A stretch of DNA of 64,000 bases. Source: Phycisphaerales bacterium. GTDB lineage: Bacteria > Planctomycetota > Phycisphaerae > WQYP01. The position numbers were made by a program. Location: contig DAIDJN010000056.1 in assembly GCA_027451365.1 (NCBI GenBank), positions 1 through 64,000 of the forward strand, in the 5' to 3' direction. Below, in pieces: positions 6,001 through 15,000 of the stretch (its first letter is position 1; the number at the start of each line of letters is the position of its first letter).

Positions 6001-9000
6001 AGGGGCACAGGGTAGCGCTGACGGGCATTGTTTGCGTATCCGATTTTGTCGCCGTTATTTATCAGGAGCCGCTATGGCCGGTCCGGACGATATCTCTCAA
6101 AACAAGAACAACGGCAAACCGCCGACCGATGCCTTGGCGGCGCTGCATTCCATGGGAGTTCCGCCGGAAAAAAAAGACAGTGAATCGCGTGAAAATTCAA
6201 CAGGCAGCGCCACTGGCTTTGCGGCAATGCTGGCCAGGGGAAATCAGGAGGAGACGTCGCCTCTGCCTTCGTCGAGTACGATGGGTGGATCGGCCGCGGG
6301 TTCGGCAGTCGGTGGCGGAAATACTGAATCTGCGCAAGTGCGACCGGTTCGCAAGCGCCCGGAGTTCGCCGAACTTCCGGAAGCCAAACTGATTGAAGTG
6401 ACGGATGAACCTCCGCCAGAGGAAGATGCCGGTTCATCCCTGGCGGCGATGGCGGCGATGGGTTCGGCCGCCCCCACCGATTCGCGTGTTGCCGCGCGGC
6501 CACCTCAACTGACCGGATTCCGAAAAAAATCCGGCCCGCCGGACTGGTACAAATTCGCCATACCCATCATGCTCGGCATTGGTGGAATGCTTTTGCTGAT
6601 AGGAATATGGTCACTGCTGGTGCTGGCTGGCGCGGCGGTGCCGCTGGTGCCGCGGCACCATTCGGGTCGCGACTGGCGGAATATTCAATGGCTGGCGGAA
6701 GTGATGCTGCTGTGCCTGCCGGTTAGTGCGGCGATGCTGGGGCTGGGCGGATTCATGGTCTACCGCATGATGCAATTATCTCCCGCCGCCAAAGACTGAA
6801 ACAGAACGCGATGGCGGACGGTCAATCGATGATTTAACCGACGGGCAAGAGGTTGACTTTTCCCGGCGGGACCAGTGGATCAAGAGAGTTGAGATTCCAG
6901 CGGTTGGGGCATTTTTTAACACTTTTGCCGTGAATTCCACGGCTGGCGCGCAGCTGCTTTCGAGCCACAGGCGCGACATGAAGCCGGCGCGCGCCGCTGG
7001 GCGCGGGTGTCGTTCATTTCAAATTTTTATTGCGCGGGCGGTTATCGCCCGGGGCCGATCGCTATGAATATGTACAGGCATCAGATGCTTTTCGACCGGT
7101 GGCGAAGATGGACCCCGGCGTGCGGCATGATTCTGCCGGGTTGCGACAGGTCATTGGATAAGCAGTTAAAGGATTTCAAATGAAAATAAAATTTACGCGC
7201 GAATATCTCGGCCAAAAAAAGGATGCAGTGGTTGAACTTCCGGATGATCAGGCCAAACCGCTGATTGGCAGCGGCACCGCCGAGGCAATAGCCGCTGTTC
7301 CGGCGGACCTTGAAGAGGCTCTGGGCGTGATGCACAAGGCGATGAACGAGCAGTTGGAAACTGCGGCGCAGCGCATCACCGGGCAGGTCATTGAGCAGGT
7401 TTCCCGCGGTTTAAAGGGGATTCGGCCGACACTGGTGATCGGCCCGGACCGTGCGGATCTTGACCCTACGGGCGGTTTTAGGAATCTTGGAGAATTCGCC
7501 CAGGCGGTTCGTCGCCATTTCACGCACAAATCCACTGATGAACGCATTAAACGCATGATGACCAAGGCCGATGGCATGGATGAAACCACGCAGGCGGATG
7601 GCGGAGCGCTGGTGCCAACCGAATATGCGAATCAGTTGTACCGGGATGTGCTGGCCGAGTCGGTGCTGTTTGACAAGGCCCGCAAATATCCGATCAGCAT
7701 GGGCAATTCACTTTATATTCCGGTTCGCAGCATTACGGAACTTGGCATCACCGCCGCTTCAGGCGGGTCGCTGGGCGCGTGGCTGAATGCGGATGGCGTT
7801 TCCATTGGCGCCCAGAAGCCCGTCTACAACCGCGTGCAAATGACGCTTAACCGCTGGGGCGCCCTGCTGCCGGTAACCGACGAGTTGCTGGCCGACAACA
7901 ATGTGGCGCTTTCCAATTTCATTCTGGATGAAGGCGGCATCGCGCTGGCCTGGGATTTGAATCAGGCCATGCTTACCGGCACCGGCGCGGCGCAGCCTCA
8001 GGGGATATTGAATTCGCCGGCGCTGGTAACCGCGGCCGCGGACGCGGGGCAGGCAAACTTCACCATCAGCTACAGCAATCTGGTGAATATGAAAAGCCAT
8101 CTATGGACCCCCCGTCCCGGTGACCTTTCCGGCGTGGTGTGGATCGCGCATCCGGATGCCGAAGCGCAGTTTGAACAGTTGAAGGATGGTGCGGGACGGA
8201 ATCTGTATTTTGCCGCCGGCACCATTCAGCAGTCGCCACAGGGACGGCTATTCGGTCTGCCCGTGGTGTACAGCTACCACTGTTATCCGGTGGGGAATCC
8301 AGGTGATGTCATTCTGGCGGACCTGAACCAATATTTTGTTTCCACGAAGGCGGGTGGCGGGATTGAAACCGCCATGTCCATGCACCTGTATTTTGACAGT
8401 GCGGAAACCGCATACCGGATCATTTACCGCGTGGATGGCAAGGTGGCGCGGAATGCCCCGCTGACTGTTCCCAACAGTGGAAATCTGCGCAGCGGATTTG
8501 TTTCCCTGGCGGCCCGCGGCGGCACGTTAAGCTAAGGCACATCTCTCTGACACCCGAATCCGGACCGGCCCGACTTTCATACTGCGATGAATTCGCGGCC
8601 GGTTCGGAGAGGGGCGTCTGTTTTCAGTGGTTTAAGACGCAACGCACAGGAGCATCCCGATGGTTTCTTTTTCCGCATTGACCAGTCCGACCGCGGTGGA
8701 TGTGCTGACCGATGCACTGACACAATGGGCTGTTATCGGAGGCTTTTGTCTGGCGCTCGCGGGCAGCGTGGTAACGGTGATTGGCTTTGTCATCACACTC
8801 AAGGTGACGCAGCATGATCATGCCCGGCGGCTTTCAAGTCTGGAAACGGCGCTGCGGCAGTTCCTGGCGCGCATGGAAACACTGGAGCGCGGAATGGCCG
8901 TTCTGCTGCAACGGTCCGGGCGCAAGGCGGGCCACCTCCGGCTTTCGCGTCGCGCAGCCGGCGGACCGGTATCGGCCGGCGTGCCCTGACCTTCGCGATC

Positions 9001-12000: not shown

Positions 12001-15000
12001 ATGGGCCGGATCTATTGCCGGCACCACATTGCAACTGCAGGTTGGCGCGCCGGATTAACCGGCGGCCCGGGCCTCCGCAATTCCAGATCAGATCAGAACA
12101 TCACAGGAATGCAGATGAATATTCTTATCAAATGGCCGACGCGCAGCCGGCCACAACTGTTTTTGGCGACTTTGGCCAGATGGCGGTCCATGGCATCGGG
12201 GCAACATTGCATACGGTACGTGATCAGCATTGATGCCGATGATCCGACCATGTGCACGCCCTGGGTAACCCGCGCTTTGGCGGATATGAAGGATGTGCGC
12301 GTAATAACGGGTGCGGCGCGACGAAGCAAAGTAAGCGCCTGCAACGCGGACCTTCCGGTGGATGGCGACTATAGCTTCGCCGGCGAGCCACCCGATATGC
12401 TGGTTCTGGCCAGCGACGACATGCAGCCGCGAATGCGGGAATGGGATGATATTTTCGCAAAAACAATGGCGCAACAGTTTCCCGCGATGGATGGCGCGCT
12501 GCACTTTTCCGATGGTTACCGCGGCGGTCAATCACTGATGACTCTTTCGATAATGGGTTGGAATCTGTATCGCCGTTTCGGGTATGTCTATCATCCGGCG
12601 TATCAGTCGTTTTTCTGCGACAATGAATTTACCGCCGTGGTCAAAAAAACAGGCAGATATGCCTGGGACCCGCGCGTGGTGATTGAGCATGAACATATCG
12701 GGAGGCATCCGGATGCCCTGTACCGGCGGAACCAACTGCGATGGCGGGAAGATGAGCTGATGTTCGCACTGCGGCAGTCCGCCGGATTTGATATTCAGAC
12801 TCCCCGGTTAAGCATTCTGATCGCCGCTTTGGACAAGCGGGAAAAATCGCTGCGAGAACTGCTGGATATCCTGCATCAGCAGATTTTTGCCTTGGCGAAT
12901 CCGTGGCAGGTGGAAATTCGTGTCGCGCGTGACCGCGGCGAATTACCGGTGGGCATCAAGCGGCAGCGGCTGTTGCGCGAGGCGGGCGGTGATTTCGTCT
13001 GCTTCATTGATGATGACGATCTGGTGGCGCCCACATATGTCGCCGATATTCTGTTCGCCATTGATCGCCAGCCCGGCGTGGACTGCGTGGTGTTCGGCGG
13101 ACGTCTGGAAGTGGATGGTCGATTTGCCGGTCCATTTGATTATTCGATTGCCCATCAGCGATATTATCAGGTGGGGAACCGCTATTTCCGCACGCCGAAC
13201 CATTTGTGCCCGGTGCGGCGCGATCTTGCGATTCAGGTCGGGTTTAAGGCGGTCAATTGCGGGGAAGATACCGATTACGCCCGGCGTCTTTACCCGCTTT
13301 TGAAAACGCAGGCGGAAATTGCGGCACCGGACGGGACCGGAGAAAAGAAAACTCTATATCAATATCGCTTCAGCCCCACGGGCACCGCGACACAACTGGC
13401 TGGCAAATCGGCGGCGCAAGTCTGACGCGACAAGGTCCTGTTCGTGCGCGTACTGTCGAGAACCTGTCACGGAGGACGGTCAGCGAAAATGTACCGGGGA
13501 GATTCAGTTGTCCATTCGGCCCGGCGCGAACGGAGTCAGGTCCCAGGCGCATTGGCCATCAAGAATAAGGTCCGCCATCGCCTGGGAAGCCAGCGGCGCA
13601 AAACCGATGCCTATTTTGAAATGACCCGCACATATATACAGATTGTCGAACTGGGCGAATTTTCCCATCACGGGGCGGCGTTTTGGGCCTGCCGGCCGCA
13701 GCCCGGCCCATATTTTAGCGACGGTGGCCTCGGCCAGTGCGGGGCAAACGCCATTGGCCCCGCTGCGCAGAAAATTTATTCCGTCAGGCGTGTTGATCGT
13801 ATCATATCCCGCTTCCGGTTCGGTGGTGGAACCAACCAGAATTCGCCCGTCGGGCCATGGCACCAGAAAAATGTTTTCGCGTTTGACAATATGCTGCAAA
13901 ACAGGCCGTTGGGTTTGCAGCAGCATGGCTTGTCCTTTTACCGGATCAATGACCGCGGGCGCGACAGGCTGACCGAGCAGATGTGTCCAGACGCCGGTGC
14001 AGATCAGATACTTTTCCGCCTGAAATGTCCGGCCGTCGGCGATTATGCCGGTGACGCGTGAAGCAAGCGTGTCCAGGCGGGTCGCGGGCGTATATTCCTC
14101 AATGATCACGCCGCGACTTATACACGCCTGGCGCAGGGCTGCAATCAATTCCTCGACATTGACCTGTGCCGACCAGCGGCAAAGCTGGCTTTCCAGCGTG
14201 CCGCATTCGACCATCGGTTCGAGTGTCCGGGCTGCCGCGGGAGAAAGCATTTCCATCACCGGGTCAATCGGTGGCGACTGATCGGCCTGTGCGGGAGTTA
14301 AGGCGGGCCATTGTTCACAGGCCGCCGCCGTCTGCTGGCGTGCCTGCGCCAGAGCCTTTTCACTGGAGAAAAGCTCCAACTTACCTTGTCTTAAATAGGG
14401 AACATTTCGTCCGGTTGCGCGATACAAAGCCTGCAGAAAATGCGGGTAATCCCAAAGGCTTTGACGGTGCAATTGCTGCAAATGACCGGCATTCACCATG
14501 GCAGGCGGCCATAACGCGCCTAGCGCCGCCTGGCTGGCGCCCTGTCCGCACCGACCAAGCTCCAGGAGCCGCACCCGGGCACCACGGTCGGCCATTCGCC
14601 AGGCGGCGGCCATGCCCATTATCCCGCCTCCTGAAACCAGCACATCTACCGCTGCAATGCTTTTCATGAACGCAATCTCCAAACAGTCGCGGCGAAAGTA
14701 TAACGGACGTGGTGCCATCGCGGTAAAGCGCTGCTGAATCGGCGGACGCTTTATGCTAAACTTTTGCGCATGAGGTACTCGCTGTTAAAAATGGTCCTTT
14801 TGGTTTCGGCGGTTTTGCAGATGGCCATGGCCAGTGTTGCGCTGGCGGGCCATATTGTCGCCGGTCCTGCGATCGGTGCGGTCACGTCCAATTCCGCGCG
14901 AATCTGGATGGAACTGAATACTTCAGACCGCGTGCATGTGCAGGCGTTTGATGTCAACACCGGGCGGGAAGTTTCCGCGTGGGGCGATGGGGTGCACGGG

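Follow-up and report, generated by a model that had tools for sequence, protein, structure and literature searches.

The window, that is, the whole 64-kb stretch analysed, covers positions 1 to 64,000 of contig C56 of the Phycisphaerales bacterium genome GCA_027451365.1 (G000; other G-numbers denote related genomes). On its forward strand, positions 7180..8535 encode an HK97-fold major capsid protein of 451 aa with an N-terminal scaffolding-type extension (PF05065, E 1.5e-37; phrog_10; TIGR01554), as the first-pass annotation had stated. Its orthologues are 63-89% identical, with a median dN/dS of 0.055. The same annotation had placed the gene among housekeeping genes; we observed instead that it heads an operon with six genes downstream (8660-13425), four of which are conserved across genera. 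Of 19 other capsid loci mapped, that of G019 alone has the gene at 6074-6799 next to the capsid, and this gene does not belong to the particle system.

The first of the downstream genes (8660..8989, forward strand, as are all the following ones) encodes a 109-aa protein with a single hydrophobic, transmembrane segment, which may be holin-like; in the mapped genera a similar small protein comes after the capsid, and Pfam-type, PHROG and TIGRFAM-type profile searches gave no family match. The product of the next gene (9044..9712) is a lipoprotein with a coiled coil and a C-terminal transmembrane helix. Unimolecular spanins are characterised, in PMC6139136, by an N-terminal lipoylation signal together with a transmembrane domain at the C terminus, and the lipobox-like Cys and C-terminal helix of this protein, retained in its orthologues and in the G015 prophage, correspond to that architecture with no sequence-family match, making it a putative spanin; its Atlas neighbours are 96-100% viral, with scores below 0.9. 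Hence the statement that no lysis gene is present was not confirmed, given holin-like and spanin-like products, while no endolysin or tail peptidoglycan hydrolase was recognised by profile searches among the genes scanned.

Further downstream lie a gene for a 67-aa protein with an N-terminal membrane anchor (9790..9993; with homologues in 12 genomes, which represent 5 genera) and a variable slot (10058..11593), encoding a 511-aa SGNH/GDSL-hydrolase-like protein (its Atlas features score 0.90-0.91 against viral and SGNH clusters) that has a homologue only in G019. In G028 the slot holds pectate-lyase-like beta-helix proteins instead, and the 511-aa protein is a candidate head spike or receptor-binding depolymerase. 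The adjacent 136-aa beta-sandwich protein (11648..12058; weak PF23926 LtfC match, E 0.011, below the cut-off) has homologues in G019 and G028 only, travels with the variable slot and is possibly the spike base. The operon ends with a two-domain glycosyltransferase gene (12115..13425; phrog_14775, 8858, 14945; PF00535), which the fetched loci contain in 21 genomes or prophages (dN/dS 0.145).

Upstream of the capsid, the previously described promoter variant was recovered at 7042..7068 on the forward strand, with TTATC as the -35 part and CTATGA as the -10 part, 111 nt 5' of the start. It scores 16.2 bits with the matrix (genome rank 31); capsid orthologues have better copies 130-170 nt 5' of the start. 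The consensus TTATC-N13-16-CTAYA is conserved before particle operons, the sites reported in G019 and G012 included. The claim that the motif occurs nowhere else in G000 stood for the strict pattern, which has exactly 4 sites, each ending 5-6 bases before the ATG, as compared to 0 in 10 Mb simulated with a 4th-order Markov model; it did not stand for the matrix, which detected a fifth strong site before C81:10788-11315. In 1.52 Mb, 77 sites score more than 20 bits; 76 of these stand before particle genes (74 of them in training classes), and none of 690 host genes reaches 18 bits. A generalised pattern yields 84 matches, its reversed control 13. To look for further regulon members, twenty unassigned pattern sites were read: two belong to particle genes (the G019 tip gene and the G040 ParB gene), the others being unrelated or intragenic. 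Genes split from their operons tend to carry a site of their own (TerL in G031, TerS in G040, a tip gene in G000 and G019). Of the 115 leading genes, 83 score at least 15 bits; in g9, as in parts of g8 and g11, the promoter has degenerated, and a strong site is missing before the split-off TerL in g8/g10 and before the tube gene in G016. The housekeeping sigma70 motif was rejected as an explanation, since leaderless genes of the host carry TAYAAT (27 against 13 in the control) and the particle sites end in C in 77 of 83 cases; an activator together with sigma70 may nevertheless read the particle promoter.

Profile searches confirmed the places assigned earlier to the remaining genes: ParB_N, ABC/GNAT and TerL on C63, the portal on C22, and the adaptor, head-completion and tail-terminator genes on C70. 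The Walker A and nuclease Asp residues of TerL and the His/Ser of the protease are all conserved. The best named TerL family is PBSX-type, but the TIGR01547 score is 28 against a cut-off of 105 bits, and thus headful packaging is only a lead. The first-pass annotation had recognised neither a tail tube nor a tape measure. We now identify a tube-like fold at C70:73722-74108, whose best Foldseek matches are the RcGTA (6tba) and R4C tubes (E 8e-3 and 1e-2), and a shrunken tape-measure candidate in the corresponding position at C70:73303-73689. Such candidates are 79-148 aa long (277 in G020), a stub mostly of low complexity; position and one weak match (E 0.006) suggest the homology. Against prophage tape measures the stub gave no match by profile comparison, nor among the best 50 matches of the stub-profile search. 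PF10145 and PF20155 were above the cut-off in none of five genomes, both models also missing the tape measure of the G031 prophage. Comparison of the tube alignment, TerL and the sigma2-like alignment with PDB sequences gave nothing clear. The contractile-sheath profile PF04984 was found in none of five genomes (92-94% complete), a model that matches 3 of 14 controls.

The genes g01777 and g01776 had been described as phage-cluster genes, and indeed, in relatives' prophages, their homologues follow the tape measure; a third tail-tip gene is newly recognised. The fold of the g01777 product comprises a pair of tube-like domains (Z at best 5.4, no E < 0.001; hub and distal tail both considered). 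No relative was found in IMG/VR, and its conservation matches that of the capsid (dN/dS 0.054).

The reduced tail bears on the possibility that the capsid is host-owned for a use other than delivering DNA from cell to cell, such as carrying proteins, acting as a decoy without a tail, or controlled lysis that releases protected DNA or enzymes for a biofilm. This is suggested by the stub-like tape measure, which was not found behind the tube in the two g11 loci mapped, by a tail chaperone that persists only in g8, g10 and G008, and by the hydrolase and glycosyltransferase within the capsid operon. Yet purifying selection maintains the catalytic motifs of the terminase as well as portal, neck, tube and tip, and encapsulin-like uses need none of them; we consider this explanation distinctly unlikely. 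Encapsulins are HK97 shells with enzyme cargo, without portal and terminase; an encapsulin was rejected here, as portal, terminase, neck and tail have the promoter and distribution of the capsid. An F-type tailocin, which would be a tail with a long tape measure and without head genes, was likewise rejected, as head and packaging genes are conserved.

Eight related genera, with 31 genomes, make up the capsid-bearing clade: 28 of these genomes have an orthologue, and the three without one are 65-69% complete. In eight other genera (13 genomes) no orthologue was found. TerL, portal, adaptor and g01777 match this distribution. Outside the family the capsid was found in 5 of 356 genomes, at 31-39% identity, and close homologues bear the database names Phycisphaerae or Planctomycetia. 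The rpoB tree joins the capsid-bearing genera (SH-aLRT 91, quick tree). In six gene trees (FastTree) all multi-genome genus groups (n = 35) are monophyletic, while deep branching agrees only partially with rpoB (9/16 to 18/22 splits shared). Median dN/dS ranges from 0.054 to 0.218 across particle genes, and between G000 and G019 their dS is 0.96-1.72, vs 1.05 for rpoB. The flanking host genes differ by genus. The loci occupy six contigs in G000 and lie up to ~50 kb apart on one contig in G012 (C76); the spread over several contigs prevents excision. No integrase was found among the neighbours scanned in G000, and one adjoins a sigma2-like gene in G020 only. An intact prophage (contiguous, with integration and replication genes, sporadic) was rejected, the operons being dispersed and near-universal in the clade. 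Thus, monophyly of genera, low dN/dS, the shared promoter and the clade-bound distribution make domestication, vertical inheritance and co-regulation, as proposed earlier, well supported.

If these genes were a slowly decaying prophage, or a helper-maintained satellite-like remnant, without a host function, one could account for broken head genes in seven genomes, for related prophages persisting in the clade (G015, G031, G020) and for G008, which has a fragmented prophage-type set without the particle promoter. However, the genes are single-copy across eight genera with rpoB identity down to 80%, none of 161 full-length matches has an internal stop, dN/dS is far below 1, and promoters stand before separated fragments. 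This explanation is largely refuted already and highly improbable.

The breaks are confined to a few genes: 7 of 181 gene-genome pairs (7 genomes) are interrupted within a contig, either by foreign sequence or by a frameshift, and every one of them concerns capsid, portal or TerL. One is the G000 portal, which had been thought merely to run into the contig end; after its codon 298 comes a repeat present at four other places, for which Pfam gave no name and which we take to be an ISKra4-like insertion sequence. The protease was not found in G000 by tblastn or PF04586 (genome 93% complete). As assembled, G000 probably contains an inactive particle, and, since the insertion sequence interrupts the portal, is probably a non-producer.

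Two genes from the portal lies a two-gene sigma operon (C22:3729/3981-4565 and C22:4670-5290), which in G029 is divergent from the ParB operon. The sigma gene is present in 19 of 31 clade genomes and none of 13 outside, and not in G008; its partner has a strong match in 22 of 31 clade genomes, and weak ones in prophage-like regions only. This second gene has prophage homologues, and in G015:C147 a sigma2-like gene stands among structural genes. The operon was not found in G028 (95% complete), G036 and G037. The regulator suggested previously, g02315 (HTH/Peptidase_M78), was rejected, because it is not conserved beside the ParB gene, whose upstream neighbours differ in the other genomes mapped; the sigma operon suits the role far better.

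An 11-bp direct repeat, GTTHGS-N5-GTTWGGTA, is situated 5' of the sigma operon (16 of 19 sigma loci), recA, imuA-imuB-dnaE2 and the lexA unit. Of 22 non-sigma box loci read, 15 are at recA, imuA/imuB or a Y-family polymerase; in G000 the sites lie at recA, the lexA unit, imuB-dnaE2 and an imuA-like gene, the positions expected of a LexA box, as the core LexA regulon outlined in PMC3323433 includes recA, lexA, imuA-imuB-dnaE2 and a Y-family polymerase. In genomes lacking the capsid, the five box sites read lay at neither recA nor lexA. The repeat is likely a LexA box, and the particle genes appear to be switched on after DNA damage via a dedicated sigma factor.

Taken together, about 20 structural, packaging and lysis-like genes, single-copy in 5-6 operons, share a promoter, purifying selection and vertical inheritance. 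Judged from its genes alone, this planctomycete head/short-tail set is a strong candidate for a new gene transfer agent (GTA). The reading that we favour with moderate confidence is that the ancestor of eight genera domesticated one Phycisphaerae siphovirus as a GTA, in which DNA damage acts through LexA and a dedicated sigma on a short-tailed particle with host DNA. In the proposed mechanism, damage would free LexA from the direct-repeat box, and the sigma-operon proteins would steer RNA polymerase to the TTATC-N13-16-CTAYA promoters, of which four are leaderless. The HK97 head would be assembled from portal, protease and capsid, and a PBSX/SPP1-type terminase would fill it with host DNA in a headful manner; the ABC-ATPase/GNAT of the packaging operon would perhaps acylate this DNA. 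A very short non-contractile tail would be formed by adaptor, stopper, terminator, minimal tube, tape-measure remnant and three tip proteins; the holin-like and spanin-like proteins would lyse the producer, and kin would import the DNA via ComEC/DprA for recombination and repair. ComEC was found in 5 of 5 genomes and DprA in G000, both widespread and so weak evidence.

The main rival, in our opinion unlikely, is a PBSX-like SOS-induced particle that packages host DNA but serves as a decoy or for killing or hindering competitors, not for gene transfer. PBSX of Bacillus subtilis, in the account of PMC8347963, has a similar logic: SOS-dependent induction, a dedicated late-gene sigma (Xpf) and random 13-kb host DNA in a bactericidal particle, the shared features being predicted here. 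The PBSX-type TerL would agree with this, and the variable depolymerase slot could target other strains. However, PBSX is one 33-kb region and kills, whereas here 5-6 operons are dispersed; the PBSX-like particle described in PMC8347963 has a long contractile tail, and the B. pumilus relative of PBSX a contractile one, in contrast to the minimal tube, the short tape-measure candidate and the five genomes in which no sheath was found; and the tip protein g01777 is conserved to the same degree as the capsid, unlike a strain-targeting weapon.

As regards the GTA reading, the defining features set out by Kogay et al. (2022; PMC9662315) are a Caudoviricete-derived particle, encapsidation of mostly random host DNA, full endogenisation, often at several loci, genes not all packageable in one head, vertical inheritance with host co-diversification, and DNA delivery to other cells. 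Here, capsid, portal, protease, TerL, adaptor, stopper, terminator and tube resemble Caudoviricete virion proteins by HMM or fold, and the genes are fully endogenised at several loci and vertically inherited, with deep branches only partly congruent; that the particle is a GTA we infer from the sequences. The three GTA families tabulated in PMC9953437 have hosts among Alphaproteobacteria and spirochaetes, and our literature searches found no GTA described in Planctomycetota. RcGTA and CcGTA (Rhodogtaviriformidae and kin) are similar in the HK97 head and short siphovirus-like tail with a 130-aa tube, in the multi-locus genome and vertical inheritance (PMC9662315) and in a two-gene direct activator operon, GafY/GafZ (10.1101/2023.11.12.565669). 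They differ in the host phylum, Rhodogtaviriformidae being defined by alphaproteobacterial hosts. Unlike these two, the present set has no single main cluster, carries ParB and ABC/GNAT genes inside the packaging operon, has same-family prophages as nearest relatives (in gene trees built without RcGTA sequences), and has a tape-measure candidate well below the ~216 aa given for the five tube rings of RcGTA in PMC7296036. The activators here are sigma-like with their own promoter, whereas GafY is described as recruiting RpoD, and CcGTA is under the repressor RogA, as opposed to the LexA-type box.

The Phycisphaerae temperate siphoviruses (prophages G015:C147, G031:C66 and G020:C561, and IMG/VR contig L214) have the same families and order (TerL-portal-protease-capsid-lipoprotein-glycosyltransferase-adaptor-...-tape measure-g01777-g01776), but are contiguous, sporadic and 24-63% identical, with tape measures of 661-893 aa and no TTATC/CTAYA promoter. 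If the reading is correct, this would be a domestication independent of known GTAs, with ancestral prophages still present in the same genomes, so that loss of contiguity, tape-measure shrinkage, promoter gain per fragment and LexA capture would be directly readable. With the master switch, promoter and inducing signal named, the purpose of a GTA (repair vs exchange) becomes testable by transcriptomes and particle sequencing. More tentatively, and with considerable doubt on our part, it could be an independent GTA of PVC bacteria wired to SOS via a phage-derived sigma pair, with a needle-short, near-rulerless tail and a packaging operon chemically marking host DNA against recipient restriction, in effect a damage-triggered courier for DNA repair.

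A further yield is the probable LexA box for this Phycisphaerae lineage, which our literature searches did not find described for Planctomycetota. It shares the 11-bp period with the alphaproteobacterial box GTTC-N7-GTTC and differs from it in consensus, LexA binding here being predicted.

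The open reading frame at 7180-8535 of the window (positions 1-64000 of contig C56 of the studied genome, G000) encodes an HK97-type capsid protein, as shown by profile matches to PF05065 (E 1.5e-37) and TIGR01554; this assignment by the first-pass annotation is thus upheld, and the phage-gene blocks on contigs C63, C22, C70 and C54 also match its description. It had placed the capsid gene among housekeeping genes, which proved wrong, as this gene is the first of an operon of particle genes (members of the dispersed phage head and tail set) reaching 13425. In the mapped capsid loci the capsid gene is regularly followed by small membrane proteins, the lipoprotein and the glycosyltransferase in this order, with outer flanks varying by genus; the slot at 10058-12058 is variable, being SGNH-like in G000 and pectate-lyase-like in genome G028. 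Accessory genes near the glycosyltransferase (L038:4447-8322 of G028, L041:1592-2650 of G008, L043:11088-11552 of a G031 prophage) encode pectate-lyase-like proteins, a sulfotransferase and an FkbM-type methyltransferase, pointing to modification of the virion surface. Upstream of the capsid gene lie two ordinary host genes, a GlmS-like frame (535-2367, named from its translation) and an EF-G paralogue (2674-4737).

The survey covered 45 genomes of the order, including 31 from the capsid-bearing genera g1 and g8-g14 (the clade) and 13 from eight other genera. Capsid orthologues (63-89% identity) were observed in 29 of the 45, namely in 28 of the 31 clade genomes and in G008, and in none of the 13; the three capsid-less clade genomes are only 65-69% complete. 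The same distribution holds for TerL, portal, adaptor and g01777. In other families of the class, just 5 of 356 genomes yielded a capsid match, at 31-39% identity. In a quick rpoB tree (38 rows, none from g10) the bearing genera form one clade (SH-aLRT 91), and in six FastTree trees of particle genes all 35 genus groups with at least two members are monophyletic; at depth, the splits shared with rpoB range from 9/16 to 18/22. Median dN/dS (Nei-Gojobori, within genus, pairs with dS of 0.1-2) is 0.054-0.218 for particle genes and 0.024 for rpoB, and between G000 and G019 the particle-gene dS is 0.96-1.72 vs 1.05 for rpoB. We regard it as almost certain that this is a real domesticated particle.

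The prophage relatives (G015:C147, G031:C66, G020:C561 and IMG/VR locus L214) retain a contiguous gene order and tape measures of 661-893 aa. The particle genes of G008 cluster with prophages in all five trees containing prophage rows and have no promoter of the type described below, hence the G008 set is an element apart from the particle of the clade. This second, prophage-type head and tail set, split by host genes and located on C110 and C52 of G008 (L041, L116, L194), has a 188-aa tape-measure slot and neither promoter nor sigma operon, and possibly reflects independent domestication or decay.

The integrity survey comprised 181 gene-genome pairs for seven genes. Full length without internal stops was observed in 161 pairs, whereas 11 run off the contig, two are merely divergent, and seven are cut within a contig (portal in G000, G020 and G022; TerL in G011, G018 and G040; capsid in G034). 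The G000 portal, earlier described as ending close to a contig end, breaks off at codon 298, where it meets the 3' end of a repeat; this repeat is found again in C66 and at the ends of contigs C4, C5 and C41. The G000 assembly (93% complete) lacks the last 150 portal residues as well as the protease, whose gene lies intact behind a likewise intact portal in G019. The TerL break in G040 shows an inverted-repeat element with a target duplication. Recent knock-outs of a system conserved over the long term fit a public good that is costly and lethal, but they also show that the particle is dispensable for a single strain. A second TerS-TerL fragment in G040 (L375, G040:C80:17200-18500) is closer to g9 than to g14 sequences, reflecting either bin contamination or transfer.

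Three of the six criteria for gene transfer agents (GTAs) listed in PMC9662315 were found in the particle, which is built and inherited like a GTA and is so far a candidate; known here from its genes, it is more probably than not a GTA. Membership in the RcGTA family is excluded by the host. No report of a planctomycete GTA was found in the literature covered, which leaves out most subscription journals and supplements; PMC7947584 mentions just a planctomycete prophage. In the Phycisphaerae survey PMC11266412, which treats WQYP01 as a family of Tepidisphaerales, neither "phage" nor "capsid" occurs in the main text.

The strict motif, initially reported to occur four times directly before gene starts, was confirmed at four sites in G000, each 5-6 bases before the ATG, with no occurrence in 10 Mb of simulated sequence; these four would be leaderless promoters. 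Its general form, TTATC-N13-16-CTAYA, stands a few bases before the ATG of portal, adaptor, g01777 and ParB orthologues, and 130-170 nt before the start of capsid orthologues. Scored with a matrix built from 83 sites, the four known sites come first in G000, followed by that of the tip gene on C81 (23.9 bits). In the fetched loci (1.52 Mb), 77 sites score above 20 bits, and 76 of them stand before particle genes; as 74 of these fall in the training classes, independent support comes from TerL of G031 and TerS of G040, both detached from their operons and provided with a site of their own, and from the tip gene of G000 and G019. None of 690 host genes reaches 18 bits. Of the 115 leading genes, however, just 83 attain 15 bits, and the split-off TerL of g8/g10 has no strong site. 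Order-wide, the general pattern followed by ATG yielded 84 matches vs 13 for the reversed control (clade, 76 vs 12; outside, 4 vs 1; G008, 4 vs 0). The last promoter position is C here and T in the host TAYAAT promoters, which by the sigma70 rule points to an alternative sigma factor as the likely reader. One more strong particle-type site (L364, G000:C75:28036, 23.3 bits) is close to a contig end and has no clear gene downstream.

G000 encodes 18 sigma-region-2 proteins, and the order-wide test covered one of them, a small sigma (regions 2 and 4) picked for its closeness to the portal, from which it is two genes away. At E <1e-12 it is present in 19 of the 31 clade genomes, and in four more beside its partner; it is absent from G008 and from all 13 genomes outside the clade. 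Of the sigma regions the partner (C22:4670-5290) has just region 2; PF04542 matches all 14 members searched, at E up to 0.1, and a phage late sigma family matches one member. The partner is strong in 22 of 31 clade genomes, and its weak homologues are confined to prophage-like regions, one being located within the structural gene set of the closest prophage. In G029 the sigma operon diverges from the ParB operon. Both genes are under purifying selection (dN/dS 0.24 for sigma, 0.18 for the partner) and their trees sort by genus; neither was found in G028 (95% complete), G036 or G037. A gene limited to one clade can match a system limited to that clade through descent alone; for the sigma operon, the linkage, the homologues in prophages and its absence in G008 argue for a connection beyond shared descent. 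In the regulatory role proposed here for this operon, Caulobacter has a two-gene activator operon (10.1101/2023.11.12.565669) and PBSX a sigma factor, Xpf (PMC8347963).

Of the 19 sigma-operon loci, 16 have an 11-bp direct repeat upstream of the operon. In G000 the repeat GTTHGS-N5-GTTWGGTA occurs at C63:119915, C59:107039, C76:34004, C9:22394, C68:55402 and C82:72696, the sites belonging to recA, imuB-dnaE2, an imuA-like gene, the promoter of a two-gene lexA unit, a phage repressor and a relaxase. The order-wide pattern gave 96 matches vs 37 for the reversed one. The loci read were 30 of the 96, the first per genome: nine recA, eight sigma operon, five imuA/imuB, one Y-family polymerase and one relaxase, the other six, five of them from capsid-less genomes, having no assignment. 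The gene set at these repeats corresponds to the core LexA regulon of PMC3323433, and the repeat is very probably the LexA box of the family. LexA has been tied to GTA networks in Dinoroseobacter (PMC6473078); a planctomycete LexA motif was not found in the literature covered, again without most subscription journals and supplements. In the G000 unit (L365, G000:C9:22618-24223) lexA (C9:23606-24223) is second, coupled by ATGA to a 330-codon Pro/Ala-rich frame, and aroB-dprA diverge from the same region.

TerL is intact at Walker A, at the coupling motif and at the nuclease aspartates, and it shares an unusual Walker B (C/F-E-A-T-E) with the prophages. The protease retains His and Ser. Two orthologues of the gene 5' of TerL weakly match a small-terminase family (E 0.003-0.006); a solitary 93-aa small-terminase-like gene on C58 of G000 (L213:10074-10355) lies away from every block. 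The gene after ParB is phrog_11143, an ABC-ATPase/GNAT fusion, and may belong to the fusion family predicted in PMC7824862 to acylate a DNA base.

The first-pass annotation recognised no tail tube, tape measure or lysis gene, yet the set includes a tube and a candidate tape measure as well as lysis-like genes. The predicted structure of the tube (C70:73722-74108; pLDDT 66) has its best Foldseek matches in the tubes of RcGTA and R4C and in lambda gpV (E 8e-3 to 2e-2, none <1e-3), and its VIA list is filled by tube-fold proteins (best Z 7.8). The tape-measure candidate (C70:73303-73689), the gene after the tube, measures 123-148 aa in five genera (G016, 79; G020, 277) and ends in a conserved helix and NPFxF; the order tube, chaperone, tape-measure slot is retained in G008 and G020. 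The G020 candidate weakly matches a prophage tape-measure C-terminus (E 0.006), and profile comparison with prophage tape measures gave no match. As the five tube rings of RcGTA take about 216 residues (PMC7296036), the particle would have an even shorter tail. No tail sheath was found in the five genomes searched.

The lipoprotein (9044-9712), its orthologues and a prophage protein all combine a lipobox-like Cys with a coiled coil and a membrane helix at the C-terminus; this is the layout of a unimolecular spanin (PMC6139136), its putative function. No endolysin was recognised among the genes scanned. Two tube-like domains in g01777 fit both a hub and a distal tail protein. An unrelated G015 prophage with another capsid type (L212, G015:C129:9000-20000) carries a g01777/g01776-like tail tip with a sigma2-like gene nearby. 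The C81:10788-11315 product is Cys-rich, and its gene is the third of the g01777 operon in five genera. Near this tail-tip gene, G000:C81:4000-8200 holds three genes that, judged from their translations, we take to resemble cas3, cas7 and cas8.
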